Source of the DNA: an uncultured Bacillota bacterium
GTDB taxonomy: Bacteria; Bacillota_I; Bacilli_A; RF39; UBA660
NCBI GenBank assembly: GCA_958428295.1
Contig: CAUAFL010000006.1
Coordinates: 11,745 to 75,744 of the forward strand
Direction of reading: 5' to 3'
DNA length: 64,000 nt
Shown in pieces: positions 1,663 through 29,293 of this stretch; position 1 is the first letter of the stretch; each line of letters begins with the position of its first letter. The position numbers and the translations under genes were made by a program. The notes beneath the pieces are model-generated. The model made no database searches. It was not told where the DNA came from and worked only from the letters and a program-made list of their open reading frames with translations.

Positions 1663-1675
1663 AGTTATAACCCCC

Positions 1676-3533: not shown

Positions 3534-3696
3534 TATTCAACATAATACAATCAAGATTTTCAAAGATATAATCTTTTAGCATATTCTCTAAAACTTCCTG
3601 AATTGTAAGCCCTTTAATTTCTAAAATTTTTCTAAAAGCATTATCTGTTTTATTATCTACGAGTACCTTTAAATATGTACTTTTTTTATCATTCAT
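3517..3696 (-). CDS. Small ribbon-helix-helix-like protein (59 aa), below the ORF-track cutoff
   Basis: My translation: MNDKKSTYLKVLVDNKTDNAFRKILEIKGLTIQEVLENMLKDYIFENLDCIMLNNGRTK. The pattern is strand-helix-helix. GGGGG SD lies 8 nt upstream of the ATG. The stop overlaps the next gene's start. Confidence 0.45.
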   Translation of the reverse strand: MNDKKSTYLKVLVDNKTDNAFRKILEIKGLTIQEVLENMLKDYIFENLDCIMLNNGRTK

Positions 3697-3844
3697 TTAT
3701 ATAACCCCCTTTAAATTCAAATTTAATCTAACAAATAAATTCTTTTATGATAGATTAAAATTTTTCTAATTTTATTTTTATCTTTATCAAATATAGTGTA
3801 GCAATTTCCAAAAAACAATTTCCATTTCCATAGAAAAGATTTCA

Positions 3845-3982
3845 TCATTTACCACCAGACTTTTTATAATTTTCTTTTTCCATTGATTCATCAGCTATAC
3901 TAGCAACCTTACAAGCACAAAATAAAAAAACTAATGAAAAGATTACTATATTGATGAATAATATGATTAAAAATAATTTCAT
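3845..3982 (-). CDS. Small membrane or lipoprotein-like ORF (45 aa)
   Basis: MKLFLIILFINIVIFSLVFLFCACKVASIADESMEKENYKKSGGK. AAAGGAA SD upstream. Hydrophobic N-terminus followed by Cys. Confidence 0.3.
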   Translation of the reverse strand: MKLFLIILFINIVIFSLVFLFCACKVASIADESMEKENYKKSGGK

Positions 3983-3997
3983 ATAATTTCCTTTCTT

Positions 3998-4303
3998 TTA
4001 GGCCTAAACTTCGGCCATAATCACGACCATAAAATAGTCAAAAACTCAATAATTTTAACAACATATTAAAAGCAGGATAAACCCTGTTTACAAACAACTC
4101 GCCAGTGGCGAGTTTAGCCTTATTTCATAAGGTATTGATGAAAAACACAAGTGTTTACATTTTACTAAATTGTTATACAATCGTTTACTTTGAAACCCTT
4201 ATAAAATCTAGGGTGTGTAACAATCGTACACACTTTAAACTTGATATTTTTCTAAATTCTCGCCACCTTTAAGATGTTTTTTTATAAAAGTGTTAGGCCT
4301 AAA
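3998..4303. promoter_or_regulatory. Structured non-coding block, candidate oriT / relaxosome assembly site
   Basis: Bounded by two identical TTAGGCCTAAA palindromes (3998-4008, 4293-4303). Contains a perfect 9+1+9 palindrome AACTCGCCA-G-TGGCGAGTT (4096-4114). Hairpins at 4118-4132, 4143-4156 and 4213-4233. GTTTAC occurs three times, ACAATCGT twice and AAACCCT twice. Confidence 0.35.
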
Positions 4304-4963
4304 TTATGGACCAACACTTGGAAGACTTGGTGCATAAGGTTTTAATTCTGGAAGTGTAGGTATTTGATACCCACCACCATTTGAATTGTCATAATCATAC
4401 AAGTTATATTCTTTTGCGCTAATCTTATTATTGATTACAATACTAGGATCTGTTCGTTCAAATTGTTGACTACTAGCATTAAATTTTTGTAAGGAAAAAT
4501 GAAGATGTGGACCAGTAGAGTACCCAGTACTTCCCATAATTCCAATTTGTTGACCTTGCTTAACTTGATCGCCTACATTTACAACCCTAGAATTTTCTTT
4601 AAGATGATGATAACCAGATCTATAAACTTGACCACCTAGTTTATGTTCTATAATGATACTTTCGCCACCCATATCTTGGACTTCACTTACAACAACTGTA
4701 CCGTCTGCAACAGATACTATATTAGAAGAAGTAGGAACGACATCTATACCAGAGTGAAAAGATTTTTCGCCACTTATAGGATCTATTCTTTCGCCGTATG
4801 GGGAAGTAATAGTATAGGTGTTAGTATCAAATGGAAGAACGAAAAAAGATTGATAGAAAGCCGTATCACTTCCAAAAAGTGCAGCCAATATGGATAGAAT
4901 AATTAAAACAATCATTATAATTCCAATAACTGGAAGAAGTGCTATAAGCATTTTTCCTTTCAT
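4304..4963 (-). CDS. Membrane-anchored M23 (LytM-type) peptidoglycan hydrolase of the transfer apparatus
   Basis: N-terminal TM helix. HSGIDV (HxxxD) and GPHLHFSL (HxH) motifs. Confidence 0.85.
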   Translation of the reverse strand: MKGKMLIALLPVIGIIMIVLIILSILAALFGSDTAFYQSFFVLPFDTNTYTITSPYGERIDPISGEKSFHSGIDVVPTSSNIVSVADGTVVVSEVQDMGGESIIIEHKLGGQVYRSGYHHLKENSRVVNVGDQVKQGQQIGIMGSTGYSTGPHLHFSLQKFNASSQQFERTDPSIVINNKISAKEYNLYDYDNSNGGGYQIPTLPELKPYAPSLPSVGP

Positions 4964-4986
4964 AATTCCATTAGTAACTTGTTTAA

Positions 4987-7341: not shown

Positions 7342-7360
7342 ATTATAACCCCCTTATTTT

Positions 7361-7627
7361 TTATAAATTCATTTTGATATTATTGTAATCATCGTGGAAA
7401 ATACTATTCTTATCATCAGCACCCATTTCAAATAGACAACTTAAAATTTCATCTGATGACATTTTAGTAGTGATAGCATAATCAACAATAATATTGTCAA
7501 TATCTTCAACAATACTATTATAGTATGGTTGCCAATCTTTATTTCTAACTTTTTCTTTTGTATATTTTGCAATATTTTCTTTTGCTTTTAATAAAGTCAT
7601 ATAGACTTCATCATTTGTTTTATTCAT
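7361..7627 (-). CDS. Hypothetical protein (88 aa), paralogous to the N-terminus of the next gene
   Basis: GGGGG SD plus ATG. Its N-terminal 65 aa or so align by eye with 7631..8488 (TLLKAKE-I...DN-IVDY-I..KM...EIL.C). Confidence 0.6.
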   Translation of the reverse strand: MNKTNDEVYMTLLKAKENIAKYTKEKVRNKDWQPYYNSIVEDIDNIIVDYAITTKMSSDEILSCLFEMGADDKNSIFHDDYNNIKMNL

Positions 7628-7630
7628 AAA

Positions 7631-8488
7631 TTATAACCCCCTTAAATTTTTTGTTTCTAAATTCATATTGATACTATTATCAACATAATTGATATTACTA
7701 CGAGATTTTTTTAGACTTCTTTTATCACTAATGAAATTATCCAAATTGCCATATTTATTTTTAAATTTATCAAAGTCATTTCTGATGTCCTTTGCTGATA
7801 CACTATCATCAATAGAGTAAACAATAGCTTGATCTAAAGAAGAAAATTTTACAAGTTGTGATTTTTCAATATCAGAATTGTGAATATTATCTGATTTTCT
7901 ATAAACAAAATAATTATCATTATCTTGAAAAATGAATGTACCAGCTTTATTTACATCAATTATTTTAGCCATTTCTTTATCTAAAACTAGAATAGGCCTA
8001 TCCTTATCAATATCTAAATTGTCATCTATGTTAATAATACCATTATTAACTATAGAAATATTTTTATCTTTAAAAAAGTCTTTTTTATTTTCTTTTGTTT
8101 CTTCTAGTGTAGTAGTTTTCTTACGATCTTCATCAATCATTGTTTTTAACTTGTCTTTGACGAGTAGGACAATTTCTTCTTCGTATTTTTCCCTAATTTG
8201 TTTTTTTTTATGATTTTCAATGATTTTATTTTTAGTTCTTTGAATAAGTTTACTAGGACTTAAATTTTTGATTTTTTCCATAAACTTATTTTTTCCTTTA
8301 TGTTCATATAAAGACATAGCACAATCTAAAATTTCTTTGTTAGTCATTTTATTTTTAATTGTATAATCAACAATCATATTATCTAAACCTGTAATAATAT
8401 CATTATAAAAGCCATTATTAGATTTGTTCATTATATCTTCTTTTGCCTTTAATAGAGTAATCATTACATCATCTACTTTATTATTCAT
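7631..8488 (-). CDS. Hypothetical protein (285 aa): N-terminal domain shared with 7361..7627, Lys/Glu-rich middle
   Basis: GGGGG SD plus ATG. Contains an A9 tract (T9 on the plus strand at 8201-8209) inside the coding sequence. Confidence 0.6.
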   Translation of the reverse strand: MNNKVDDVMITLLKAKEDIMNKSNNGFYNDIITGLDNMIVDYTIKNKMTNKEILDCAMSLYEHKGKNKFMEKIKNLSPSKLIQRTKNKIIENHKKKQIREKYEEEIVLLVKDKLKTMIDEDRKKTTTLEETKENKKDFFKDKNISIVNNGIINIDDNLDIDKDRPILVLDKEMAKIIDVNKAGTFIFQDNDNYFVYRKSDNIHNSDIEKSQLVKFSSLDQAIVYSIDDSVSAKDIRNDFDKFKNKYGNLDNFISDKRSLKKSRSNINYVDNSINMNLETKNLRGL

Positions 8489-8505
8489 CTTTAACCCCCT
8501 TATCT

Positions 8506-8536
8506 ATAAAAAAAGATTAGTCAATAACAACTAATC
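8506..8536 (-). terminator. Intrinsic-terminator-like hairpin inside the transfer gene string
   Basis: GATTAGT-N8-ACTAATC (8515-8536) followed on the minus strand by a T-run (plus-strand A-run 8506-8514). Lies about 15 nt upstream of the SD of 7631..8488. Confidence 0.45.
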
Positions 8537-8696
8537 ATAATGTAAAAAAATAATATATATTATTCCATAAAAAAACAATCTCTATATAGCTTGAGATTGA
8601 TAAACTTCTTTACTTCATCAACAGGGCACTTCATTGCTATTCCCTGTTCACAATATAAGTATATATGAAATTGTCGTACTTTGTCAATATTTGTAA

Positions 8697-8972
8697 TTAA
8701 AATTTTTTATATTTCTTTTGACTTGACCTAAACTTTATCATTTTTATTATGATACTTAAAATATTGCCTGATCCATTTGGCATAGGCAAAGTAATTAAAA
8801 ATGTAAGAATAGGAAAGAAGCAAAAGAAGAATATTTTAATTAGCCCTGTTCCAAAAATTTTTGCAAGTATAAAACCTACAAGAACAGATAGACCAAGTAG
8901 TAATATCTCTTTAATTCCATATCCTTTAAATATTTCTCTTTTAACCCTTATGTTCTTCGGTATTAGATACAT
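8697..8972 (-). CDS. PrgI/VirB3-like small membrane protein
   Basis: 91 aa. N-terminus MYLIPKNIRVKREIFKGYGIKEILLLGLSVLVGF fits the PrgI-family pattern and is followed by two TM helices. Overlaps the VirB6-like gene. Confidence 0.45.
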   Translation of the reverse strand: MYLIPKNIRVKREIFKGYGIKEILLLGLSVLVGFILAKIFGTGLIKIFFFCFFPILTFLITLPMPNGSGNILSIIIKMIKFRSSQKKYKKF

Positions 8973-10350
8973 TTACATTCCCCCAATCTGTAGTAGTTTT
9001 ATATAAAGTACTAGATTCTTGATTAAATGAATAATTGTTATTATCAATCATATCTTTGTATGTATCAATTCTATCAGCAAGTGAAGTGGTGTTAGACATA
9101 TCATCATTATAAGTAGGTATATCATTACTTCCACTATCCATAGTAGGACTACTACTTTCTGAATTAGAATTTGAAGAATTATCTTGATTAGAAGATTGAC
9201 TTGCAGATTCCAAATTAGAAGATGAAGAATTTGATGTCATATTAGGATCATTACCACTTGAATTACTGTCTGGTGTAGAAGAAGAATTATCATTACTATT
9301 ATTTGAATTAGTAGAGTTATCTTCTGTTTTCCCATATCTTGACATAGCTATCATACTTGTACCTAGTGCAGCCATACTATGTAATTCACTCATATTCGCC
9401 ATTGTTCCAGTATTTGCATTTAACAAAGCACTTACTAATTGTGGCGATGATATGATAAAGAGTAAAGCACCTATGATGATAAGTATAACAGACATAGCAT
9501 AAGAAGTACCTTTTACAACTGTACCAAAAACATTAAATAATATTCCAATACATAGGTACTGGACAGCAGTAACTAGGAATGTACCTAAAACACCTTTTGC
9601 CCATACTTCAAATGTATGTGATCTATTTGATATTAAAGACGTACACACAAACGGTGCGATTGCCTTATATAAAGCCAGTTCTATCACTCGTTTAGCAACT
9701 TGAATTCCAATAAAAAATAAAAGAACGACGACGACTAAACCAACTATGAAAACAGAAAAGGTATGAAAACTATATTTATATTCCCCTGAATCAAAAAGAC
9801 CGTCATTCATAACAGCATTATAATCAACCGTCCACCAGTTCTCTATAAAGTATTTTTTATCAGATTCGTCCATTTTGCTATCATCTGCAAAAGCCGTAAG
9901 TATCATTGAAGACATACTAGCTTCAAAAGAAGTAGGACTTGTTTCTGCAGTAGATGAAACTGATATTGTATATTGTGTAAGTTTAGATGATACATCATAC
10001 CCCCAATTAAATATAGGTGGAATTAAAAACATCATTACTATACAAAAAATGATACCCCTAAATACCCTAGTAGGGGAAGAATTATCATCTTGATTGACAA
10101 AATATCTCATTATAATTTCAATAATAACTTTCAGTACTAGCCAAGTACAGGCCACAATGATTGCAGCCGAATAAATCTTATTTACATACGGATTATCAAA
10201 AAACTTAAATTTCCATATATCATTGATAATCAAAAACATACCGTCTAGTAAAATGAGTACACCTTTTGCCAACATCCAAAATACCCAACGGATCGCGTCT
10301 GTTATCCAACCTGCAGACTCGTGTTGTACTGTTAATAACTGTAACATCAT
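8941..10350 (-). CDS. Polytopic membrane protein (VirB6/TcpH-like channel component) with Ser/Asn-rich C-terminal tail
   Basis: 469 aa. Multiple TM segments. The tail is low-complexity SNSNNSNDNSSSTPDSNSSGNDPN... (about 9060-9320). Confidence 0.5.
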   Translation of the reverse strand: MMLQLLTVQHESAGWITDAIRWVFWMLAKGVLILLDGMFLIINDIWKFKFFDNPYVNKIYSAAIIVACTWLVLKVIIEIIMRYFVNQDDNSSPTRVFRGIIFCIVMMFLIPPIFNWGYDVSSKLTQYTISVSSTAETSPTSFEASMSSMILTAFADDSKMDESDKKYFIENWWTVDYNAVMNDGLFDSGEYKYSFHTFSVFIVGLVVVVLLFFIGIQVAKRVIELALYKAIAPFVCTSLISNRSHTFEVWAKGVLGTFLVTAVQYLCIGILFNVFGTVVKGTSYAMSVILIIIGALLFIISSPQLVSALLNANTGTMANMSELHSMAALGTSMIAMSRYGKTEDNSTNSNNSNDNSSSTPDSNSSGNDPNMTSNSSSSNLESASQSSNQDNSSNSNSESSSPTMDSGSNDIPTYNDDMSNTTSLADRIDTYKDMIDNNNYSFNQESSTLYKTTTDWGNVNVSNTEEHKG

Positions 10351-10361
10351 ACAAACACCAC

Positions 10362-11264
10362 CTACATTGTCATTTTATTTTCTTTGGTATAGTCGTGTTC
10401 TAATTTTATTTCTAAACCACCTATATCAGCAAATAATCTTTTTGTCATATATATAGCGTCTGGTGTAAGTTTTCTTTGCCAACATTGATTTTTAGGCGAC
10501 CACTTGTAGGCGTGACTTTTTAATTCTTCTATTACTTCTTGACTTGGTTTTTCATCAAAGAATATTTTGACACGATTATCTTCTTTATCAAAACGGACTT
10601 CGCCATTATTAAAATAGTAGTCATTCATTTGTAGTTTATCCATTTTTTCTAACTGTTTTAAACGATCCTTTACTGATTTTATATTTTGATTAGAGTTCGC
10701 TAATACATAAGGTGGAAGTGGATCTTCATTATTTTTTCTAGCTTTCTTATTATAATTCAAATATGATTGATGATTTTCTTCTAAAAATTCTAATTTTGCT
10801 TGTAATTTTTCTTTTACAAGTGGATCGTCACTACTAATTGGCTCATTATATCCATTTCTATACTTACTTATAATTTCTTCTTTTGTATAAGCATTTTTTA
10901 ACATATCATCAGTATTTTTATAGAATCTCTTTATCTTGTCTTCAATAGTATAAAGTGTGTTATCTATTTTAGCTTGGACCTTACACATTTTTTCAACAGG
11001 ATATTTTGCTGGACCAGCCACATTGACAGGCACAAAATTTGCATTAACTCTTAATAATTCATTATAACTGTCAGTAATTAGCTCTTTAAATTGTTCTTTT
11101 CTTTTATTTACAATTTCTAATTGTTTTTCGTTTAGTTCTCTGATTCCGTATAATTCAACAAATCTTTGATGTTCGTGATTAGCGTCATCTTGAATATGAG
11201 TGCCACGATTATACATACTCTGATTATCAGAACGTCTTACTAAATCTTTATCTAATTCTATCAA
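10362..11264 (-). CDS. Hypothetical conjugative-element protein (300 aa)
   Basis: TTG start 7 nt after GGGGG. C-terminal ...HAYKWSPKNQCWQRKL motif. I recognise no catalytic motif. Confidence 0.55.
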   Translation of the reverse strand: MIELDKDLVRRSDNQSMYNRGTHIQDDANHEHQRFVELYGIRELNEKQLEIVNKRKEQFKELITDSYNELLRVNANFVPVNVAGPAKYPVEKMCKVQAKIDNTLYTIEDKIKRFYKNTDDMLKNAYTKEEIISKYRNGYNEPISSDDPLVKEKLQAKLEFLEENHQSYLNYNKKARKNNEDPLPPYVLANSNQNIKSVKDRLKQLEKMDKLQMNDYYFNNGEVRFDKEDNRVKIFFDEKPSQEVIEELKSHAYKWSPKNQCWQRKLTPDAIYMTKRLFADIGGLEIKLEHDYTKENKMTM

Positions 11265-11277
11265 TTTTTAACCCCCT

Positions 11278-11940
11278 TTACATTTTTATAGTTTTTTCAT
11301 CTTTGAAATTAAAACAACCGTCGCTTGGTTTCCTATATGGAAGACCGAAGTCATCGTACAAATCTTTTTCTCTAAAGTTACGTCTATCATAATTTTTTCC
11401 AAGATATTGTTCTATAAGCCGACAATTTTCTTCCCATTCAAAACCCAAAGATGAAAATATAAGAATATCCTTATATAATAAATCTGTTTCATAATTTGAA
11501 GCTAACCCTAAAGCATTTTCAATAGTGGAAGAAAACTCTCTTGTACCACTACCTAAATTGATTTTAAAATCATATTCTTTCTTTGGATCAAACTTAAAAT
11601 AATCACGATGATAAATATTATTTTTTTCACAAAAAACATCTTGACTAACAAGATACTTTTTATAATCTTTACAATCATCTTTGTTAGTATTATATTTCTC
11701 AATAACTTGTTCAGTTGTAAGTTCATCATCTACTAACCATATAAGACATTGTAATTTGTTTTTAAATTCTTCTTCCCACCATTCATTAGTGGAATTATCA
11801 ACACCAAAATATCCTTTACCATTTTTATTTTTTACAAGGAATTTTCCAGTTAAATAACTAGGCATTTTACCATAGTCAGAGTTTTCTCGCTCATTAAATA
11901 AACGACTATAAAGATTAAAATCTATTTCATATATCTTCAT
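11278..11940 (-). CDS. Hypothetical protein (220 aa)
   Basis: GGGGG SD. The ATG overlaps the stop of the upstream RHH gene (ATGA). Confidence 0.55.
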   Translation of the reverse strand: MKIYEIDFNLYSRLFNERENSDYGKMPSYLTGKFLVKNKNGKGYFGVDNSTNEWWEEEFKNKLQCLIWLVDDELTTEQVIEKYNTNKDDCKDYKKYLVSQDVFCEKNNIYHRDYFKFDPKKEYDFKINLGSGTREFSSTIENALGLASNYETDLLYKDILIFSSLGFEWEENCRLIEQYLGKNYDRRNFREKDLYDDFGLPYRKPSDGCFNFKDEKTIKM

Positions 11941-12137
11941 TTATAACCCCCTGATAACTTCTTATTGAAATTATCCACATCATAAATATTTTTATCTTTT
12001 TCCAAAGTATTAGAAACAATTTCACATTCCTTTAAATCTTTTTTTATTAGTGTCCTTATATAATCAGACATAGAAATATCTAATTCTTTGGATCTTTTTC
12101 TTATATCTTTTTTGAGATTTTTTGTTATGTAAAACAT
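11937..12137 (-). CDS. Small RHH/CopG-like DNA-binding protein (66 aa)
   Basis: KRSKELDISMSDYIRTLIKKDL is a typical RHH helix pattern. Confidence 0.45.
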   Translation of the reverse strand: MFYITKNLKKDIRKRSKELDISMSDYIRTLIKKDLKECEIVSNTLEKDKNIYDVDNFNKKLSGGYK

Positions 12138-12166
12138 AAACTTTGTATTATATCTTTTAATTTTAA

Positions 12167-12781
12167 TTACCCCCTTAATTCACATATAACAATAAGTCGT
12201 TGCTTACTATTATTTTTACAAGTAACAAGTGTTAATTGTTTTTTGTCATTTATACTATTGAAATAAGACATATCATTATCATTGATTGTATGTTTACTGA
12301 TAATAGTAAAATAGTAAGTATTTTGATGAGTAACAATCTTTACTTGATCGCCAACTCTCATATAATGTAATTTTTGAAACACATTACTGGTGCTATGGCC
12401 TGCTAGAATCATATTACCAAATTCATCATCTAAATTAGCAGATACAGATAAAGTACCAACTAAATTTTTATCTAAAACTTTTTTTGATGTTCCTGTTGTG
12501 ATAAGTCTTTTAATTCCATACCCAGAAAGTTCTATATATCCTAAATAGTTATCAGTTAATACAAATTCCTGTTTTGGTGTTTCAATTATAGTAGGTGTTT
12601 CTTCTGGTATTTCTACTTCTGGTGTAGGAACATCTGGAAACAAATCATTGATAATAGTTTCTGTTTCTTGTTTATCTATTTCTTTATTATGTAGAAAACA
12701 ATAAGTAGAAAGGATCGCCACTATAATTAGTAACAATCCAATCACTACAAGTATTTTATTTATTATTTTTCTTTTTAGCAT
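12167..12781 (-). CDS. Sortase (Cys transpeptidase) dedicated to the adjacent adhesin
   Basis: N-terminal TM. LAGHS (His), TLVTC (Cys) and QRLIV (Arg) motifs. Overlaps the adhesin 3' end by 26 nt. Confidence 0.8.
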   Translation of the reverse strand: MLKRKIINKILVVIGLLLIIVAILSTYCFLHNKEIDKQETETIINDLFPDVPTPEVEIPEETPTIIETPKQEFVLTDNYLGYIELSGYGIKRLITTGTSKKVLDKNLVGTLSVSANLDDEFGNMILAGHSTSNVFQKLHYMRVGDQVKIVTHQNTYYFTIISKHTINDNDMSYFNSINDKKQLTLVTCKNNSKQRLIVICELRG

Positions 12782-15494
12782 ATAATAGAAGACCTAACCC
12801 TACTAGGGCAGTACCCATAATAGTAATAACACTAGTTATATCAGTATTGAATGTTTTAGGCATTTCTACTTTTTCATTAGTCATTGTTGCTTTTACAACT
12901 TCGCCATTCTCTAAAATTTCAAAATACATTTTTTCTTCATTCAAAATATAATTTTCTGGTGCTTCTTTTTCAAGAATGTAGTACTTACCATATTCTAAAT
13001 CTTTAATGATGATTTTACCGTTTTCATCAGTACGACCAGAAAAGATAAGTTCTTCTGTTTCAGCATTATATACTTCAATCAATGTGTTAGGAAGTGGATC
13101 GCCAGTAGATAAATCTACCTTTGTAAATTCCAAATCTCCTTTAAATTTTTCATTAGTCATACTAGCTTTTACAACTTCGCCATTTTCTAAAATCTCAAAA
13201 TATACTTTCTCATCAGATAATTTATAACCTGTTACTGTTTCAGTTTCAATTATATAGAATTTTCCAATAAATAGATTTTCTATTTTGATTTTACCGTTTT
13301 CATCAGTAACACCACTATAAATAAGTTCATCGTCAGAAGTATATATTTCTATTTTTACATTAGGAAGTTCCTTACCACTTGTTAGATCAGTTTTACGAAA
13401 ATCTAAACTTCCTTTTCCTAGATAGTTTTTAAGAGTAAATGTTTTTTTGATTATAGGTGTATATTGATCCTTATATTCAAGAACAAACTCATATTCTTCA
13501 TTATCTAAAATATGATTTCCAGTAGTAGAAATTTCTTTTATAATATACTTTCCAAGTTTTAAATCTTCAAATCTTACAAAACCTTTATCATTTGTTTCAA
13601 GTGTTTTAATAAGATTACCTGATTCATCATATAAACCAAATACTACATTAGGAAGTTCTATTTCTTCATAAGTATATGTACCATTTTCAATTACTATTTG
13701 TTCGCCAACTTTATTTAATTCAATAACACCTTTAACTTCTTGATTTTCAAAATGAATTTCAAGTATGGCGTCAAAGTCATCAGTTTTCTTAATATCGGCT
13801 TTCTCATCTATAGTAAATGGAAGTGGTGTAGAATTCCAAACATACCCATAAACAACTTGATTTACTTCTTCTAATTGATAATTACCACTATTTAATGGAT
13901 ATGGTGTAATTAAGACACCGTCCTTATCAGTTTCAAATTCACAATAAGTTGTTGTAGTAGGATAAGATACTGTTTGACATACATACTTACCAGTTGCTAA
14001 ATCTTTAATTTTAAACTTAATACCAGCTTGTGTAACATTATTACCGTCTTGATCTACTTTAACTACTTTTAATCTTGATGTGATTTCAGCATTTGAGAAA
14101 ACCTTATTGATAGTAGGACCTAAATCTCTAACTTCAAAATGATAATCTTCTATTTTTTCAAACCCACTTGTAGAAGTAAGTTGTCTTAATGTGTAATCGC
14201 CATAAGGAAGTGAAAAGTAAATCTTACCGTCTTTATCTGTAGTTTCTATTGATACTAAATTATTATTATGATCATAGATAGCAAATTCAACCCCAATCTC
14301 TGGTGTCATAATTTGTGTTTTATCAGAAGCATAAACTTTTGTAATTTCATATTCACGAGTGATTACTTCTTCGTAAACATCTACTTTAACAAGTAAATTA
14401 TTTTCATCTACTGTGAAGTAATACTTTTGAGTATCTAATTTATATCCTTGACTAGGTGTAATTTCTTGCAAATAAAATCTACCTAAATCAGGTAGATAAT
14501 CACTTCTTGCAAAAGCATTATTATCCGTTGTTATTGTTCCAACAAGATCGTTTGTTTCGGCATTGTATATTCCATAAGTGGCATTAGAAAGTGAAGCTAA
14601 TCCCTGTGGAATTACTTCGCCTGTGTCTTTATCTCTCTTTGTGATTTCAACACGACCACCAACTACTTTTAAATTGATAGTAGAATATAAAGGATCAAAT
14701 GATCCAACTCTAAATACATTTTGAGTGCCTTCCTTAAAATATACTACTGGTGGTGTAGGATATAAAGAATCTTCCTTTGATAACTTAATAGTAGCATTTC
14801 CGACACCAGTAGCAGTAATTGAAAGTGAATTACCATTGATACTTGCACTTGCATTACTTTGTTCTTTTACTCTATACCCATTTAAAACATTATTTACATC
14901 ATTTAATGTAATAGTTTTTCCTAAAGGTAGTGTAATAGATTCTGAATTAAAGTTAGGCCTTTTATTGTGTTGAGCAACTAAACTTTCAATCTCATTTATT
15001 TCATCAATAAATAAATTGTCATTTCTAGTACCATTTAAACCGTCAGTAAAGTAAATAGTACTTGTTGGCTCTGCAGTACGCCAAATCAATACTTGTGTAA
15101 CAGCATACCATTTTGGGGTATTATGATTTCCATATCCATACCCATAATAGGCAAGTAAACTAATTCTATCCCATTGTTCTGGTGTCATATTAAGATAAGT
15201 TGCATAATCACTTCGTGCAACATTATAAATAAGGTTATTATCAATATCAACAAATGGTTGAAGACAATAAACAAAAGCATTATCTTCACTACGACGCATA
15301 AATCTTGCTTGTTTATAAGCAACATAACCGTCGGATCTTGCTTTTTTCAAATATACATTTGAAATATATTCGCTAGGCCAAATAGCTTGTCCTGCATAAG
15401 TTTCAGCTTTGACTTCTAAAGTAGAAGTGGCAAAGCCTAAAACTATACCCAGTAAAATGGGTATAGCAAGTAAAATTTTTCTTTTTATATTCAT
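12756..15494 (-). CDS. Surface adhesin: signal peptide, N-terminal thioester domain, multiple CnaB/SpaA-type repeats, C-terminal sorting signal
   Basis: 912 aa. VYCLQP (Cys77) and AVTQVLIW (Gln134) match the Cys...TQxx(I/V)W thioester-domain signature. Repeats begin ITKRD, VKVD, LNKVG, FRKTD, FTKVD. The tail is MPKTFN, then a hydrophobic stretch, then KKKNNK. Confidence 0.8.
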   Translation of the reverse strand: MNIKRKILLAIPILLGIVLGFATSTLEVKAETYAGQAIWPSEYISNVYLKKARSDGYVAYKQARFMRRSEDNAFVYCLQPFVDIDNNLIYNVARSDYATYLNMTPEQWDRISLLAYYGYGYGNHNTPKWYAVTQVLIWRTAEPTSTIYFTDGLNGTRNDNLFIDEINEIESLVAQHNKRPNFNSESITLPLGKTITLNDVNNVLNGYRVKEQSNASASINGNSLSITATGVGNATIKLSKEDSLYPTPPVVYFKEGTQNVFRVGSFDPLYSTINLKVVGGRVEITKRDKDTGEVIPQGLASLSNATYGIYNAETNDLVGTITTDNNAFARSDYLPDLGRFYLQEITPSQGYKLDTQKYYFTVDENNLLVKVDVYEEVITREYEITKVYASDKTQIMTPEIGVEFAIYDHNNNLVSIETTDKDGKIYFSLPYGDYTLRQLTSTSGFEKIEDYHFEVRDLGPTINKVFSNAEITSRLKVVKVDQDGNNVTQAGIKFKIKDLATGKYVCQTVSYPTTTTYCEFETDKDGVLITPYPLNSGNYQLEEVNQVVYGYVWNSTPLPFTIDEKADIKKTDDFDAILEIHFENQEVKGVIELNKVGEQIVIENGTYTYEEIELPNVVFGLYDESGNLIKTLETNDKGFVRFEDLKLGKYIIKEISTTGNHILDNEEYEFVLEYKDQYTPIIKKTFTLKNYLGKGSLDFRKTDLTSGKELPNVKIEIYTSDDELIYSGVTDENGKIKIENLFIGKFYIIETETVTGYKLSDEKVYFEILENGEVVKASMTNEKFKGDLEFTKVDLSTGDPLPNTLIEVYNAETEELIFSGRTDENGKIIIKDLEYGKYYILEKEAPENYILNEEKMYFEILENGEVVKATMTNEKVEMPKTFNTDITSVITIMGTALVGLGLLLYAKKKNNK
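12870..13409 (-). repeat. Two tandem repeats of about 264 bp encoding near-identical CnaB-like modules
   Basis: ...GKFYIIETETVTGYKLSDEKVYFEILENGEVVKASMTNEK followed by ...GKYYILEKEAPENYILNEEKMYFEILENGEVVKATMTNEK. DNA similarity is visible, for example near 12890 versus 13160. Confidence 0.7.
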
Positions 15495-15539
15495 TAAAAT
15501 TCCCCCTTATAAATTCATAAAAAAAAGACCTTTACGGCC

Positions 15540-16154
15540 TTATGATTCTAATTCTATATATTGAATGTGATAACCTAAAAATTTACCAGAGTAACTATAA
15601 GTTTCATCACATCTAAAACGATAATTTTCTAACCCTGTATAATTTGCACCTGCATTATAACAAGCATTTTTTGTTTCTTCCATACTTCCTAATTTATTTA
15701 CATCAAAATCTACTGTTTTCCAAGAAATCTCTGGACTATTGTAATAATCATATTCACTAATACCTAATTTTTCCCATTCTGTAGGTTGTTTAGGTTGTGG
15801 AACAACAACTTCTGGTGTAGTAGAAGTTTGTACTTCTACCTTATTATTTTGAGAAGTTTGTACTTCCTGTTTTGGTTGAGAAGTATTTTCTTTTTGAATA
15901 ACAACTTCTTGTTTTACTTCTGGAGCAATTTCTTCTTGTTTTGTTTCTAATACTTCTTGATCTTCCTTATTATCTAATAGAGAAGTAATTATGTCTTCAT
16001 CTATTAACTCTTGTTTTTCATTTGATGATGAATCAACTATGAGATTGTCTTTTTGATTAGTTTTTGTTTCTTGATAAATATATCCTTTCACAAACACACT
16101 AATAAAACCGACTAATAAAATAATACCACTAATTTTAAATATTTTCTTTAACAT
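15540..16154 (-). CDS. Membrane-anchored or secreted protein with acidic/Gln-rich linker
   Basis: I prefer the internal ATG (MLKKIFKISGIILLVGF...) after the AAAGGA SD. The track ORF extends to 16199. Confidence 0.5.
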   Translation of the reverse strand: MLKKIFKISGIILLVGFISVFVKGYIYQETKTNQKDNLIVDSSSNEKQELIDEDIITSLLDNKEDQEVLETKQEEIAPEVKQEVVIQKENTSQPKQEVQTSQNNKVEVQTSTTPEVVVPQPKQPTEWEKLGISEYDYYNSPEISWKTVDFDVNKLGSMEETKNACYNAGANYTGLENYRFRCDETYSYSGKFLGYHIQYIELES

Positions 16155-16228
16155 ACATAAGCACGTCCTTTCTTTAAATGAATAATAACGCGCTTTCAAA
16201 AAAAATACAGCCCCTAAATTGAAAAAAA

Positions 16229-16564
16229 TTACATTTTTACATTTTTTTCTTGATCTATATCATCTTTTATTGATTTAGATGATGATAAAAAAGATATTCT
16301 TTCGGCAATTATAGAAATTTTATTATCCTTACCTTGTAATCTTCCTTTTATACCTAAAATATCGCCTTTTTTACAATATTCAGCGGTACTTTCTGCTATA
16401 GTATTCCAAACACTTACAGGAAAAAAATCTGTTTCATATTCGCCATTAGCATTTTTGAAAGGCCTAGAAACAGCTACAGTAAAATTACATACCTTTTTAT
16501 TATCTTCTAATTCTTTTATGGTAGGATCGCCAACAAGTCTTCCTACAATAGACATCATATTCAT
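16229..16564 (-). CDS. ssb: Single-stranded DNA-binding protein, short form
   Basis: 111 aa. OB-fold signature IVGRLVGDPTIKE...FTVAVSRPF...DFFPVSVWN. No DDIPF-type acidic C-terminal tip. Confidence 0.85.
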   Translation of the reverse strand: MNMMSIVGRLVGDPTIKELEDNKKVCNFTVAVSRPFKNANGEYETDFFPVSVWNTIAESTAEYCKKGDILGIKGRLQGKDNKISIIAERISFLSSSKSIKDDIDQEKNVKM

Positions 16565-16565
16565 T

Positions 16566-16829
16566 TTATACCCCCTTAAATTCTAAATTTAATCTTATTT
16601 TTTCTAACTCTATAAGAAGATTTTTTAATCTTTGTTGATTAAGATTCTTCTTATAAAGATTTTGATTTTTCTTTTTGTAGAATATATTAAGTAAATTCTC
16701 TACAAAGATAATGTCTTCTAAACCGTCAATTATCTTTTTTTCTACAAAACAAGTTTCAACTTCATATTCCATAATTCTAAAATATTTACACGTTTTTATA
16801 ATTTCTTTTACTAATTTTTCTTGACTCAT
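16566..16829 (-). CDS. Hypothetical protein (87 aa)
   Basis: ORF ends ...EFKGV, and these codons form the GGGGG SD of ssb. Confidence 0.5.
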   Translation of the reverse strand: MSQEKLVKEIIKTCKYFRIMEYEVETCFVEKKIIDGLEDIIFVENLLNIFYKKKNQNLYKKNLNQQRLKNLLIELEKIRLNLEFKGV

Positions 16830-16833
16830 ATGA

Positions 16834-17073
16834 TCACTTAAAATAAGTTAAGATCCAGTTTACAAATTGCACTACAAGAAATACAGAAACACCAGCGATT
16901 AGTGTTGTTCTAATTTTACGAAGCGAAGCAGCTTTCTGATGATCTTCAGAAGCTACCATATAAAAGATACAATCTTTTAAAACAAAAAAGCCCGTCGCAC
17001 CTGCAACGAACATTTTTAAATAATTTGTTGCGTCATTGATTAGACGCAAAATATCATTAAGTATTGATTCCAT
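16834..17073 (-). CDS. Small two-TM protein (VirB2/Maff2-like size and topology)
   Basis: 79 aa with two hydrophobic helices. GGGGG SD plus ATG. Confidence 0.4.
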   Translation of the reverse strand: MESILNDILRLINDATNYLKMFVAGATGFFVLKDCIFYMVASEDHQKAASLRKIRTTLIAGVSVFLVVQFVNWILTYFK

Positions 17074-17084
17074 TTATAACCCCC

Positions 17085-17585
17085 TTATATTTTGTATGTT
17101 TCTAAAAGTTCTTCAATATTTTTGTTTTCAAGTTGTTTTTTAGTTTCTCGACACGCCTTAAAAATTAAACCTAATTGATTATCAGAATTTATTTCTAAAG
17201 TTTTATTGTTAAATTCATATTCAAACTCTTTTTCTATATTACCACTATGCGAATTATACATTGATACTTCTATAGTAGTACTATTATCATTTACTGATCC
17301 TACTTGAAAACTAAATTTGTAATCATCTTTTTCAATATCATTAAACATATTTATAATTATGTTTTTTGGATATTGTAAAGATTCATTTGTAAGACTAGGA
17401 TAGTCATCGCTATAATTATCATCGTAATACTTAAATACTTCTTGTAATCTTTTTAAATCATCATTACTTACATCTAAACCTTTACAAAGATATTCTTCAT
17501 AAGCAAGTAATGCAGTTCCAATTTCTGATCTTGAACAATCTTTAAATTGTTTTATAAGTTCTTCTAATTTATTTATAAAAACCAA
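17085..17585 (-). CDS. Hypothetical acidic protein (about 163-166 aa); start codon uncertain
   Basis: The track TTG start abuts the GGGGG SD with 0 nt spacing. An in-frame ATA lies 9 nt after the SD. Confidence 0.5.
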   Translation of the reverse strand: MVFINKLEELIKQFKDCSRSEIGTALLAYEEYLCKGLDVSNDDLKRLQEVFKYYDDNYSDDYPSLTNESLQYPKNIIINMFNDIEKDDYKFSFQVGSVNDNSTTIEVSMYNSHSGNIEKEFEYEFNNKTLEINSDNQLGLIFKACRETKKQLENKNIEELLETYKI

Positions 17586-17643
17586 CCCCCAATATTCTTT
17601 TAGTGAAATATTTTAGACTTTTCTTTTTAACACCCCCAATCAT

Positions 17644-17670
17644 AAAAAATAGATGTTATCTAAAACATCT
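17644..17670 (-). terminator. Intrinsic terminator after the sigma-like regulator gene
   Basis: AGATGTT-N6-AACATCT (17651-17670) followed on the minus strand by ATTTTTTAT. The hairpin overlaps the stop codon. Confidence 0.6.
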
Positions 17671-18111
17671 ATCATCAAGACCAAGAGCACTTACAAACTT
17701 AATACAACCACTTTTTCTAATTTCTCTGACTTTATCTTTACCATAATTCATAATAGACAATATCTCATCTTCTTCTTTGCACTTATAAAAGGTTAGATCA
17801 AAAACTTGAAGTTCTATATCATTCAATTTACGAAGTGCCAAAGTAATTTTTGAAAGTAATTGTCTTCTTCTGTTTTCAAGTTTAGTTTCTAACATCATAT
17901 TTTTAAGAACACAATTTTCTACTGTTGATGATTTAACAGGAATAAATTGTTCATATCTAACCCTGTAATCGCTAGTAATCTTTGGAATAGCAATTTTGTC
18001 ATCAGTTCTTTTTAGATATTTTAGTAATTTGAAAACATCTAAAATAATGTTTCTTAACTTGACATAATCATATAAAGATAGCTCGTCCTTTCCTAATAAA
18101 GTATTGTTCAT
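17656..18111 (-). CDS. ArpU-like / sigma-70 region-4-like transcriptional regulator
   Basis: 151 aa. The C-terminal part ELQVFDLTFYKCKEEDEILSIMNYGKDKVREIRKSGCIKF resembles a region-4 HTH. Its position equals that of Tn916-type orf7-like regulators. Confidence 0.4.
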   Translation of the reverse strand: MNNTLLGKDELSLYDYVKLRNIILDVFKLLKYLKRTDDKIAIPKITSDYRVRYEQFIPVKSSTVENCVLKNMMLETKLENRRRQLLSKITLALRKLNDIELQVFDLTFYKCKEEDEILSIMNYGKDKVREIRKSGCIKFVSALGLDDRCFR

Positions 18112-18308
18112 AAATTTGCCCCCGATCTAGTACTCAATGAAAAAAGGACAATCGCAAATAAGAACATAATTGTCCTATCTTTGATTATCCTTTTAATAAT
18201 AACAAAAGCATTTCTAGGTTGATTTTCTGATTTTAGGGGTACGATATCTAATAGTTGTTTTGTTTTAATAAATACAGCTTGCATTGTTAAGTTAAGACAT
18301 AGACTCAT
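18108..18308 (-). CDS. Upstream (leader-type) ORF of 66 codons, overlapping the regulator start (ATGA)
   Basis: GGGGG SD 6 nt before the ATG (18315-18319). Its 3' end carries the SD of the regulator. It contains a terminator-like hairpin. The peptide has no recognisable domain. Confidence 0.3.
   Translation of the reverse strand: MSLCLNLTMQAVFIKTKQLLDIVPLKSENQPRNAFVIIKRIIKDRTIMFLFAIVLFSLSTRSGANL
18140..18176 (-). terminator. Terminator-like hairpin embedded in the leader ORF
   Basis: AGGACAAT (18145-18152) and ATTGTCCT (18169-18176), 8-bp stem, 16-nt loop, followed on the minus strand by TTTTTT. Confidence 0.5.
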
Positions 18309-18319
18309 ACCTTACCCCC

Positions 18320-18386
18320 TAAAAAAGGAAGTAGATGCCGTTAAGGTTGTAAGCAACCTTAAAATCAGGATACATACTACTTCCTT
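18320..18386 (-). promoter_or_regulatory. Composite (nested) hairpin followed by U-tract, immediately 5' of the leader ORF SD
   Basis: Outer stem AAGGAAGTAG/CTACTTCCTT (18325-18334 / 18377-18386). Inner perfect 9-bp hairpin TTAAGGTTG-TAAG-CAACCTTAA (18341-18362). On the minus strand the 3' arm runs into TTTTTT, then A, then GGGGG. Confidence 0.5.
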
Positions 18387-18424
18387 AACTTCTTATAAAC
18401 AACAAATTTCTTTAATTGCTGTTT

Positions 18425-18453
18425 ATAATATACCAAAAACTACCAAAAATCAA
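18425..18453 (-). promoter_or_regulatory. Candidate sigma-A-type promoter for the leader/regulator transcript
   Basis: Minus strand reads TTGATT (18453-18448), 17 nt, TATTAT (18430-18425). Confidence 0.35.
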
Positions 18454-18486
18454 GCGTTTCAATCTAAAAACACTTAAAATTATTAC

Positions 18487-18543
18487 AAAATACGAAAAAA
18501 CACCAGCAAGTGGTGTTCCTTGAGTACATTTATTTCGTATTTT
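18487..18543 (-). terminator. Intrinsic terminator with complementary A-rich and T-rich flanks
   Basis: AACACCA-GCAAG-TGGTGTT (18499-18517) followed on the minus strand by TTTTTCGTATTTT. Outer 11-bp complementarity AAAATACGAAA/TTTCGTATTTT (18487-18497 / 18533-18543). Confidence 0.55.
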
Positions 18544-18627
18544 ACTATATTATATCACGCCATTGTTTATAGTCAATTAGGAATAAATGTTGTAGAAAAC
18601 ACGCCTAAAATGTCTGATGAAATCATC

Positions 18628-18646
18628 GTAAACACTTGTAAACACT
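18628..18646. repeat. Tandem direct repeat GTAAACACT-T-GTAAACACT
   Basis: Read directly from the sequence. The 12-mer GTAAACACTTGT also occurs, inverted, at 4147-4158 in the oriT-candidate block. Confidence 0.8.
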
Positions 18647-18737
18647 AGGTTTTTGTAAAAAGATACTTTGGTGGATAAAGCATTATTGAAAGCATTATGT
18701 AATTTTAATACAAGCATAAATGACTAAAATCTGCATA

Positions 18738-18761
18738 AAATAAAAAGAGATTTTACTCTTT
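18738..18761 (-). terminator. Terminator after the HTH gene 18781..19098
   Basis: AAAGAG-N6-CTCTTT (18744-18761) followed on the minus strand by TTATTTTAT. Confidence 0.45.
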
Positions 18762-18780
18762 TACATCTGTGTCCTTACAA

Positions 18781-19098
18781 TTATTTAATAAAGTCATCAA
18801 CATTTTTTTCCAATATGATAGATAGTTTGATTATCTTATCAAGTGGCATTTGTTTAGTACTATCAGTTTCACTTTCAAATCTTTTGTAGTGATTGTGATT
18901 ATAATCTAATAAAGCTGCAATATTTTCACTTGAATATGGGTTAATTGTACTGTTTGAATTTTGACTCTTAAACTCGTTGTATTTTTCCACACGAAACTTT
19001 TTGATGTTCTTACAAATCGTATCATAAATTATGTTTTTATCTACTGTGGATACTAGACCTTGTAGTTCTTCAAATCTTCGCATAGTCATTATTCCCAC
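18781..19098 (-). CDS. XRE-like HTH protein (105 aa)
   Basis: ICKNIKKFRVEKYNEF...SSENIAALLDYNHNHYKRFES...LDKIIKLSIIL has HTH_XRE-like spacing with an insertion. Confidence 0.45.
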   Translation of the reverse strand: MGIMTMRRFEELQGLVSTVDKNIIYDTICKNIKKFRVEKYNEFKSQNSNSTINPYSSENIAALLDYNHNHYKRFESETDSTKQMPLDKIIKLSIILEKNVDDFIK

Positions 19099-19200
19099 CT
19101 TTCTAAATAATTATCTCATTTATCAAAATGCAAAATAGCCACAAGTTCACACAAAATGGTGGTAAAAATCAAAAAAACTATGTTATAATAAATTAGGCAC

Positions 19201-19225
19201 AAAAAAAGAATAAGTAGTATTATTC
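19201..19225 (-). terminator. Terminator after the XRE gene
   Basis: GAATAA-N6-TTATTC (19208-19225) followed by T7 on the minus strand. Confidence 0.5.
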
Positions 19226-19498
19226 TTAGCGTCTTGGTATCCGATGATTTTCTACGGTGTTTCTTTCAATAAATAATTGTTCTAAAGAAATACCAAGAGT
19301 ATCAGCAATATGACCTATGTAATCAATTCGTGCATTTCTTCTTGCATTTTCTAAATTAGAAACATAAGTTGTGGTAGTTCCAAGTTCTTCTGCAAAATCT
19401 TCTTGGGACCAGTTCTTTTTAATTCTAAAATAGACTATGTTATTAGCAAGAATTTTACGAGCACAATCTTCATAGTTTTTACTCTGAATTATCATCAC
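19226..19498 (-). CDS. XRE-family HTH transcriptional regulator
   Basis: NIVYFRIKKNWSQEDFAEELGTTTTYVSNLENARRNARIDYIGHIADTLGISLEQLF is a canonical Cro/C1-type HTH. Confidence 0.85.
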   Translation of the reverse strand: MMIIQSKNYEDCARKILANNIVYFRIKKNWSQEDFAEELGTTTTYVSNLENARRNARIDYIGHIADTLGISLEQLFIERNTVENHRIPRR

Positions 19499-19663
19499 AC
19501 CCTTTCTTTATAACTTACTAATATTGTAATAAGTATGCTGTTTTTCAACCATACCAACTATGTAGTATTGTACTTATAATAATATTAAAAATAGTATGAG
19601 AAATTTGACGAAAAAGTGCTAGAAGGTAGGCAAAAATATAGAAAATGAGAAGGAGCTAAAAGT

Positions 19664-20188
19664 ATGAAAGTACAAAAAAACAATCTACAAGAATGTGCAG
19701 ATAACATTTCACAAAAATTAGAAGAAAGGATCAAAAAAATAATGGCTATTGAGTACCATTATAATTTATTAGACTTTTTTAAAGAAATTGATAAATTCAC
19801 AGAAGAAGAACAGCTTTTTGCCTATGAATTATTGATGAATGATTATTTAAAAAAGATTAAAGATTTTGATTCTAATATAATACTTGACAGAAAACAGGAT
19901 CGTAAAATTGATGATATAACTGATTTCTTTGACTATGATTATTACTCTAAAAACAAAGATAATGTAAGTAATGATGAATATTATGATGTAATGGAAGAAG
20001 CAGAATATGTTGTTGCTAATTTCATTTCAAAAATATTTAATCAAAAAGGTAGAACATTAACACTACCTGTTACGATTCAAAATATAAAAGATTATGGTGT
20101 TAGTAGTGTTGTTCCAGAAAAAGATATGAAAAAGGTTATCTACTGGATCATATTAAAATTAGCAGTAATTTATAATTATTATGTGTAA
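19664..20188 (+). CDS. Hypothetical protein (174 aa), divergent from the XRE gene
   Basis: GGAG SD. Acidic, Tyr/Asp-rich, with a hydrophobic C-terminus. Confidence 0.5.
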   Translation: MKVQKNNLQECADNISQKLEERIKKIMAIEYHYNLLDFFKEIDKFTEEEQLFAYELLMNDYLKKIKDFDSNIILDRKQDRKIDDITDFFDYDYYSKNKDNVSNDEYYDVMEEAEYVVANFISKIFNQKGRTLTLPVTIQNIKDYGVSSVVPEKDMKKVIYWIILKLAVIYNYYV

Positions 20189-29216: not shown

Positions 29217-29293
29217 GGCGGTATTGGTGAAGGGGTTAACACGCTGGTTTGTGGCACCAGTACGCAAGGGTTCGAGTCCCTTATACCGCCCCA
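29217..29293 (+). tRNA. tRNA-His (anticodon GTG) with encoded G-1 and CCA
   Basis: Manual fold. G-1, then acceptor GCGGTAT/ATACCGC. D-arm GGTGAAGGGGTTAACAC, as in Firmicute tRNA-His. Anticodon stem CTGGT/ACCAG with loop TTGTGGC. T-arm AAGGG-TTCGAGT-CCCTT. C73 then CCA. Confidence 0.85.

Follow-up and report, generated by a model that had tools for sequence, protein, structure and literature searches.

Conjugative elements must silence their transfer genes until the right moment; how Gram-positive elements achieve this past transcription initiation became clear only recently, for pLS20, pCF10 and Tn916. Attenuators in the leaders of conjugation genes are established for pLS20 (PMC13401043), pCF10 and Tn916 (PMC11658703), and ribosomes are known to suppress intrinsic terminators located inside or just past a translated frame (PMC4824070), as in the pyrBI operon of Escherichia coli (PMC5021804). 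There, the leader open reading frame (ORF) pyrL, equipped with its own Shine-Dalgarno (SD) sequence, runs through a terminator composed of a hairpin and a U-tract and ends beside the regulated gene (PMC5021804, PMC4824070). An alternative antiterminator hairpin is absent, and according to the passages on pyrBI in PMC5021804 (citing Roland et al. 1988) and PMC4824070, a ribosome close behind the polymerase prevents formation of the hairpin. Here, we analyse a leader that precedes the gene for an ArpU-like regulator in a conjugative element of an uncultured Bacillota bacterium, contained in a stretch of 64,000 nucleotides (nt) (contig CAUAFL010000006.1, positions 11,745 to 75,744), hereafter the window. 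The leader comprises approximately 470 nt (18576 to 18108) with three terminator-like hairpins, T1 (part of the stem-loop SL1), T2 and T3, the last of which is embedded in an upstream ORF (uORF). We see an even chance that this conserved multi-tier leader keeps the ArpU-like gene off by default and that translation of the uORF overrides T3. All coordinates are positions in the window, and leader and regulator are read on its minus strand.

As in pyrBI, the leader contains an ORF with SD sequence and start codon, a terminator inside this ORF and no competing antiterminator, with the qualification that in one lineage (L012) the uORF stops in the 5′ arm of T3. Judged from the sequence, the embedded-terminator logic matches that of pyrBI, and the pyrBI leader is a precedent in view of which the original prediction, which knew of no described equivalent of this layout, was too strong. 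The two systems differ in organism and regulated function. Moreover, the signal in pyrBI is UTP-sensitive pausing, for which no counterpart was identified in the leader described here, and transcription and translation may be uncoupled in the host lineage. Beyond the pyrBI layout, the leader has two further terminator-like tiers upstream, another promoter and long-range helices; notable features are the clear evolutionary signature of a sequence-free uORF, the stacked design and the covariation of the long-range helices. The locus represents a compact, conserved case with a rich comparative signal from uncultured gut Bacilli, where the decision appears to hinge on uORF translation irrespective of the peptide. 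It thereby offers a testable case of a terminator overridden by ribosomes beyond the enterobacterial pyrBI paradigm, and this in a lineage whose coupling of transcription and translation is doubtful.

For comparison, we used 45 related loci from approximately 14 lineages, with regulator identities from 99% down to 63%. Sixteen loci were found via the regulator protein, 21 metagenome loci via the T2 motif and 5 sister-clade loci via protein look-ups, and one lineage was recovered from behind mis-called 217-aa proteins. Relatives of the regulator are confined to metagenome-assembled genomes (MAGs) from gut samples labelled Bacilli, Tenericutes or Mollicutes; the L008-type leader is abundant in human gut assemblies. 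When genomes were scanned a second time, using a protein alignment, no more distant relatives emerged, and the viral collection searched yielded no match; by these searches, the regulator/leader family is narrow. The coordinates of the original prediction were all confirmed on the minus strand, and fold z-scores together with conservation in the related loci place its features beyond chance. Its stack of two terminators had to be extended: three tiers were found, SL1/T1 being added, along with a second promoter (P1) and the long-range helices.

The 66-codon ORF with its GGGGG SD sequence was confirmed, and its frame is kept open among relatives. The ATG, 6-9 nt downstream of the SD sequence, is invariant in all uORF-bearing leaders, and the uORF is intact at 64-67 codons in 32 of the 34 uORF-bearing loci. 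The two broken uORFs (L015, L016) come from one long-read-like assembly; as this assembly frameshifts the regulator gene as well, we attribute their frameshifts to homopolymer errors. These two regulator cassettes lie approximately 90 kb apart on the closed MAG chromosome CP091726.1, where homopolymer-length differences frameshift the uORF in both copies and the regulator in one. In ten representative leaders (L012 excluded), the uORF frame contains no stops, compared with 3-14 in the other two frames, and dinucleotide shuffling leaves it open in 0.1-0.75% of the trials (P 0.001-0.0075 per lineage). Within one cluster, a local frameshift is compensated a few codons further on (KKIDVRA vs KILIFRA). 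The ratio of non-synonymous to synonymous differences (pN/pS) of the uORF amounts to 0.77 in the large cluster and, for the window compared with L002, to 1.42, the corresponding values for the regulator, which is under strong purifying selection, being 0.07 and 0.11. In addition, the uORF differences are evenly spread over the three codon positions. An open frame combined with a nearly neutral peptide is therefore the signature of a frame that needs translation, whereas its product is immaterial. These comparisons support the view that the uORF is a selected, translated frame with a peptide sequence that is nearly free to vary.

If the uORF instead encoded a functional small protein, T3 would merely set its ratio to the regulator. 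The retention of 64-67 codons and weak shared motifs (SYI..Q near the N-terminus, F.P in the middle and FSLDTRSG at the C-terminus) would be in line with such a function. We nevertheless regard it as highly improbable, given the pN/pS of approximately 0.8-1.4 without third-position bias and the coincidence of the conserved C-terminal residues with nucleotide elements (U-tract, A′, SD sequence). The uORF product has no family match in Pfam or NCBIfam, and T3 is located upstream of the stop codon, so that terminated transcripts could not yield a complete peptide.

The lineages without the uORF (n=6) are also devoid of T3, and there T2 lies approximately 110 nt from the regulator ATG. The distribution among the loci supports that uORF and T3 were gained or lost together. 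In the L076 lineage, the frames of uORF and regulator coincide, with a TGA 3 nt before the ATG. Public 217-aa gene calls (P0030, P0114 and similar; L076:352-1005) fuse uORF and regulator by using genetic code 4, with TGA read as Trp.

The original prediction had drawn T3 as an 8-bp hairpin, AGGACAAT (18176-18169) pairing with ATTGTCCT (18152-18145) and Ts extending to 18140 (-9.6 kcal/mol, z -4.35). A hairpin followed by U6 is indeed present inside the uORF, but the 8-bp version is replaced by a longer compound hairpin, the minimum free energy (MFE) form, in which 18194-18183 pairs with 18153-18142 around an inner stem. Both T2 and T3 are stable by folding free energy (Table 1). Across 11 lineage representatives, T3 folds with -20 to -26 kcal/mol (z -2.8 to -6.6). 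It is found at the same position in every uORF-bearing lineage, with a U-rich tract at its end, approximately 28-37 nt before the regulator ATG. The stems are unrelated between lineages, as exemplified by AAAAGGAUAAUC/GAUUGUCCUUUU in the window, AGAGCAAUAGGUAUU/GGUAUCUGUUGCUCU in L008, GGGCGAAAUUCUUA/UAGGGAUUUUCGCC in L012 and GGAACAAUGGC/GCCGUUGUUCC in L076. On the level of the compared sequences, a shape that is kept with unrelated stems constitutes strong qualitative covariation; it was documented by per-lineage folds and not by a formal pair count, because the MAFFT alignment is out of structural register.

T1, T2 and T3 each consist of a stable G+C-containing hairpin directly followed by U6, as expected for intrinsic terminators, and the U-tracts are conserved across lineages. 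In partition-function folds of the nascent RNA, pair probabilities are 0.72-0.98 for the T3 stem (nine lineages with a correctly delimited stem; start at P1, P2 or locally) and 1.00 for the T2 stem (12 lineages; RNA starting at P1 or P2). No competing RNA fold was found for T3 in these nine lineages or for T2 in these 12, and antitermination of T2 or T3 by a zipper or another RNA structure was rejected, since both stay folded. As neither has a competing RNA fold, T2 and T3 should terminate unaided. Without an RNA competitor of T3, the uORF-translating ribosome is therefore the only encoded T3 antagonist.

In this respect, the leader differs from the conjugation attenuator cATT upstream of conAn1 on pLS20, where the zipper extension forms by default and acts as an RNA antiterminator (PMC13401043), whereas the terminators here stay folded in all predictions. 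In other respects the two are alike: cATT is a highly structured leader of approximately 450 nt that extends from the main conjugation promoter to the first gene; an intrinsic terminator immediately precedes this gene, an upstream stem-loop and the terminator lie on either side of a long-range helix, and the 5′ stem sequence is strongly conserved (PMC13401043). The leader described here lacks an upstream stem-loop complementary to the terminator with a long stem that extends into an antiterminator; the long-range helices X-X′ and A-A′ only flank T3. Moreover, pLS20 has no uORF, and the element lacks a ConAn1 gene, the first gene being ArpU-like. Antitermination of the conAn type was rejected, as no PF17362 protein is present among the 30 element proteins scanned.

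In the orf12 leader of Tn916, located upstream of tet(M), slow translation of a short leader allows the terminator to form via alternative hairpins. The original prediction had likened the control logic to orf12, but mutually exclusive hairpins for T2 or T3 and conserved regulatory codon runs are both missing. Tn916 is likewise a Firmicutes conjugative element in which terminators before regulatory and transfer genes must be overcome, translation of a short ORF is implicated, and the sigma-like regulator orf7 lies downstream (PMC11658703). Its antiterminator canT is a processive cis-acting RNA (PMC11658703). In contrast to the leader described here, neither orf12 nor canT comprises a terminator embedded in a 66-codon frame.

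In the proposed mechanism, two tandem sigma-A promoters would each lead into a hairpin with U-tract, P1 into SL1/T1 and P2 into T2, and T1 and T2 would reduce the transcripts from P1 and P2. RNA escaping T2 would carry the uORF with T3 in its last third. A ribosome translating the uORF would occupy the arms of T3 and thereby free the polymerase, or the finished mRNA, from T3. The same ribosome would traverse A′, otherwise paired with the SL1 loop, thus clearing this clamp, and would then stop on the UGA at or next to the regulator AUG. With these steps, the regulator would be made only upon escape from T1 and T2 together with efficient uORF translation, which would tie the onset of transfer-gene expression to strong promoter firing and the translational capacity of the cell. 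From the arrangement of the leader we infer termination at the hairpins, relief of T3 by the ribosome and reinitiation, and active translation of the uORF is probably required for the regulator to be made.

Several points weigh against this mechanism. In B. subtilis, RNA polymerase reportedly outruns the ribosome (Johnson et al., Nature 2020); if the same held in this Bacilli host, relief of T3 during transcription would be weaker. The same data are matched by a post-transcriptional version, with translation unfolding T3 and A-A′ and thereby freeing the start site. The original prediction had also proposed translational coupling. The ATGA overlap exists in the window but is not universal: the uORF stop overlaps the regulator ATG in some lineages and lies 3-4 nt upstream in others, and in L012, where the uORF comprises 35 codons and stops within the 5′ arm of T3, the distance is 72 nt. 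Coupling is not obligatory, because the regulator has its own strong SD sequence, which is unpaired in the predictions. Furthermore, the six uORF-less lineages manage with T2 alone, nothing in the leader RNA accounts for escape of the polymerase past T2, and the mechanism does not account for the invariance of the T2 5′ arm and apical segment.

Table 1. Positions of leader features and adjoining genes in the window
Feature	Position	Strand	Remarks
HTH_3 gene	19226..19498	-	first listed gene of the element, upstream of the leader
105-aa gene	18781..19098	-	between HTH_3 gene and leader
P1, near-consensus sigma-A promoter	18576..18549	-	TTGACT-16-TGaTATAAT, extended -10 (TG-n-TATAAT); 11/12 matches + TG
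SL1/T1	18543..18487	-	outer stem 18543-18533 / 18497-18487; inner hairpin 18515-18511 / 18505-18501; U6 18500-18495
A	18527-18520	-	GUACUCAA in SL1 internal loop; complementary to A′
X	18487..18431	-	5′ strand of long-range helix; includes RNA copy of P2 -35 and spacer
P2	18453..18425	-	TTGATT-17-TATTAT; -35, -10 and 17-nt spacing conserved among relatives
Hairpin B	18428..18393	-	13-bp stem; predicted in every main-clade lineage, stem sequences differ
T2, composite terminator-like hairpin and U-tract	18386..18321	-	-24.6 kcal/mol, z -4.61
uORF SD	18319..18315	-	GGGGG, one nt past T2 U-tract; G-run invariant in all uORF-bearing leaders
uORF	18308..18108	-	66 codons; TGA overlaps regulator ATG (ATGA, 18111-18108)
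X′	18254..18195	-	3′ strand of long-range helix; inside uORF just 5′ of T3; contains conserved CCCC and AAAAUCAA
T3, compound terminator-like hairpin and U6	18194..18140	-	inside uORF codons 39-57; -20.2 kcal/mol, z -5.82
A′	18137-18130	-	UUGAGUAC; between T3 U-tract and regulator SD, inside uORF
Regulator SD	18123..18119	-	GGGGG; conserved/invariant; unpaired in predicted folds
ArpU-like regulator	17656..18111	-	151 aa; first gene of the transfer-gene array

T2 is present in every lineage, and T3 and the uORF are either both kept or both missing; the hairpins and the ORF of the original prediction are conserved in the uORF-bearing relatives. T2 is composed of an outer stem (18386-18377 / 18334-18325), an inner 9-bp hairpin (18362-18341) and a T6 tract (18326-18321). 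In 30 distinct leaders, the outer stem is 98.7% paired, and its changes are one-sided only. Covariation was thus found in part: T3 covaries qualitatively and the outer stem of SL1 shows compensatory changes at 5 of 11 pairs in the same 30 leaders, but T2 does not. The 5′ arm and apical 19-mer of T2, AAGGAAGUAGUAYGUAUCC (18386..18368), is essentially invariant, exceeding the requirement of the stem. The element contains no second copy of it, the sole match with at most 3 mismatches being chromosomal DNA outside the element; copies of the 19-mer as binding sites of the regulator or as promoters were rejected, since the element holds no further copy.

These properties of T2 bear on the possibility that the hairpins are constitutive insulators against upstream or spurious read-through, as T1 of Tn916, and that the polymerase escapes by leakage or through a protein or RNA antiterminator acting at the T2 segment. 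uORF translation would then matter only for mRNA stability or ribosome delivery. The unconditional folding of T2 and T3 agrees with such a role, and the invariance of the 19-mer beyond the need of the stem suggests a sequence-specific partner. In addition, more terminator-like sites are located inside the downstream transfer genes, and designs combining terminator and antiterminator are common in Gram-positive conjugation operons (PMC8191782, PMC11658703). However, no ConAn1 homologue was found among the 30 scanned element proteins, and the T2 motif occurs only once in the element. That T3 strictly co-occurs with the uORF and lies within its frame is left unaccounted for, and transcripts ending at T3 would be non-stop mRNAs, which is odd for a simple insulator. 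We therefore consider constitutive insulation rather unlikely.

A common coding sequence for the active-site motif KGSSMYP of S24 (LexA/CI) peptidases agrees letter for letter with the T2 19-mer, and the chance database matches to the 19-mer are S24 peptidase genes (L019, L020, L027, L032). A relic of such a gene was considered and the resemblance treated as coincidence, as flanking stops are present and the Y position breaks the motif. Likewise, an ORF starting at the AUG inside T2 is probably due to chance: it is conserved neither in the main clade nor in L071-L074, which have AUA or ACG at the start position and early stops. The frame from this AUG reaches the regulator ATG in L014 (33 codons) and is open in L013.

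The original prediction had placed the leader promoter at TTGATT-17-TATTAT (P2). This promoter is present and conserved, but it is neither the only nor the best one, P1 being stronger. In a scan of the element, P1 is the best promoter-like site in 1..20000; across 30 distinct leaders its -35 and extended -10 vary little or not at all, and it is found in uORF-less lineages too. The spacer sequence of P2 drifts in L012-L014, and as the hexamers and the 17-nt spacing are kept while the spacer varies, P2 is conserved as a promoter. Upstream of P1 (region 18563..18645), conserved direct repeats were observed, GTGTTTAC-AA-GTGTTTAC at 18645..18628 and GACATTT twice (GACATTTT...ACATTT), which from their sequence are likely operator sites. 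The adjoining regulator genes vary by lineage, here the co-directional HTH_3 and 105-aa genes, in L005 and L008 a divergent 90-aa helix-turn-helix (HTH) gene; because of these differing neighbours the cassette is modular.

SL1/T1 begins approximately 8 nt downstream of P1 and comprises an outer stem, a 14-nt internal loop, a G+C-containing inner hairpin and a U6 tract (-15.7 kcal/mol, z -4.97; T1 inner hairpin, -10.1 kcal/mol). The inner hairpin varies between lineages in sequence and in length, from 5 to >20 bp. A U6-7 tract follows in the main clade and is missing from the sister clade (L013, L014 and L071-L075), and SL1 is therefore primarily a structured element that may also terminate. 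The next hairpin, B, is complete only in P1-derived RNA, because its 5′ arm overlaps the P2 -10 and start region. The whole 471-nt leader folds with a z-score of -4.7 (-4.74). It has no match to known RNA families in Rfam, neither at the gathering threshold over the window nor at E<=10 over 17900..19300.

The internal loop of SL1 contains the segment A, encoded co-directionally approximately 390 nt upstream of its complement A′. In the alignment, 95% of the A-A′ cells are paired, and a double compensatory event converts GUAUCC/GGAUAC, found elsewhere, into GUACUC/GAGUAC in the window lineage, changing two adjacent pairs. The helix is extended to 12 bp in L014 and to 10+5 bp in the L008 type, the 5 bp being gained through an insertion. 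No further target of the SL1 loop was found in the window. In the second helix, AAAAUCAA of X′ is the complement of the P2 -35 CUUGAUUUU and covaries with it in L013 (UUGAUAUU / AAUAUCAA). By RNAduplex, X-X′ has -29.4 kcal/mol and z -2.7 in the window and z -4.0 to -5.4 in L002, L003 and L012, and it is not significant in the L008 type. X-X′ and A-A′ flank T3 without invading it, and T3 stays folded. Because both 3′ strands lie inside the uORF, translation would open both helices in uORF-bearing lineages. In the uORF-less sister clade, the segment that follows SL1 pairs with the one behind T2, just before the SD sequence, in helices of 17-22 bp (z -2.3 to -5.4) whose sequences are unrelated and whose 3′ strand occupies the same interval as A′. 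With pairings in both clades, a 5′-to-3′ clamp ending beside the ribosome-binding site of the regulator is thus a general feature of the family.

Such RNA-RNA pairing might itself be the main switch. SL1, either as a short P1-T1 RNA in trans or in cis, would pair with A′ beside the SD sequence and, together with X-X′, repress translation or direct processing of the regulator mRNA, similar to the action of FinP on traJ, with uORF and T3 as an accessory layer. This idea draws on the fixed position of A-A′ in all main-clade lineages and L014, on its double compensatory change and lineage extensions, and on the significance of X-X′ in L013 as well as in the window, L002, L003 and L012. Moreover, the sister-clade helices show that the pairing is present without uORF and T3, so it is the older and more general feature. 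We hold it to be a less probable main switch all the same: the covariation of A-A′ stems from a single evolutionary event, the duplex z-scores of A-A′ per lineage are modest (-0.5 to -2.4), and A′ covers neither the SD sequence nor the AUG. The effect of the pairing could be positive, negative or merely structural, and the open uORF frame and the T3 U-tract are left unaccounted for.

In pCF10 (prgQ/Anti-Q) and the F plasmid (FinP/traJ), a small RNA complementary to the leader of a regulator or operon likewise sets the OFF state. For pCF10, the outcome is termination at IRS1. In these systems the RNAs are true antisense counter-transcripts, whereas the complementary segment A is co-directional. 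No strong plus-strand promoter-like site is present in 18100..18600. Other lineages do not retain the plus-strand TATAAT that lies at the P2 -10 in the window, and a conserved promoter for an antisense RNA against the leader was not seen.

A broader and tentative reading, to which we assign a low probability, would unite three checkpoints in one 470-nt leader that controls a sigma-like master regulator: a clamp that SL1-derived RNA places on its translation-initiation region through covarying long-range pairing, a sequence-free uORF acting as a translation sensor, and the invariant 19-nt segment of the middle terminator T2 as a docking site for a factor. The three would differ in mechanism. 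The uORF ribosome would both override the embedded terminator and strip the clamp. If true, this would represent a previously undescribed control of conjugative elements in uncultured gut Bacilli with reduced genomes. The covarying helices and the invariant T2 element provide specific handles for mutagenesis, by which a new RNA-binding factor or a step of control between RNAs might come to light.

The regulator gene product had been described as ArpU/sigma-like. It aligns with ArpU (TIGR01637) over positions 6-134 of 136 (E 3.1e-7), but its 30.7 bits stay below the curated cut-off of 43.1; it also matches PHROG 248 and 36 (transcriptional activator/regulator) at approximately 1.5e-6. By these matches it is a distant ArpU relative and not a certified member of TIGR01637. 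By analogy with the ArpU/RinA family, it presumably activates the transfer genes. For the 105-aa gene upstream of the leader, the label "HTH gene" could not be upheld, as no family match was obtained in Pfam, NCBIfam or PHROG.

The window has a G+C content of 30% and uses genetic code 11. TGA is a true stop, because long genes encode Trp by TGG and contain no in-frame TGA; code 4 (TGA as Trp) was rejected on the same grounds. The conjugative element is encoded on the minus strand from approximately 20 kb down to 1.7 kb of the window, and chromosomal genes begin at 21451. The ArpU-like gene is followed by genes for a pilin-like protein of the type IV secretion system (T4SS), a single-stranded DNA-binding protein (SSB), a TED/SpaA adhesin, sortase, TrbL, VirB4, a NikA-like protein and a MobL relaxase. 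The sole Rfam match in the window at the gathering threshold is a tRNA gene (29218..29290, plus strand), which lies 8 kb past the apparent end of the element and is not obviously an integration site.

In the sister clade, the cassette of P1, SL1, P2, T2 and regulator adjoins chromosomal genes (copper ATPase, PepSY). The regulator is followed by a gene for 157-175 aa and a large TED/SpaA adhesin gene, or, in L013, directly by a gene for a surface protein of 1088 aa. This cassette may belong to a reduced or different element.

Within the T4SS genes of the window, an 88-aa DUF1492 protein is encoded (7361..7627, minus strand; PF07374 E 4e-4, just below the cut-off; no PHROG match), with which the element would encode two members of the RinA/ArpU/DUF1492 activator superfamily. 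A terminator-like hairpin with T6 is located at 16990..17011 (minus strand) within the 79-aa ORF of the T4SS pilin-like protein (16834..17073), and a second terminator-like site at 15525..15541 (minus strand) between a 219-aa gene and the adhesin gene. Such sites thus also punctuate the array of transfer genes that follows the regulator.

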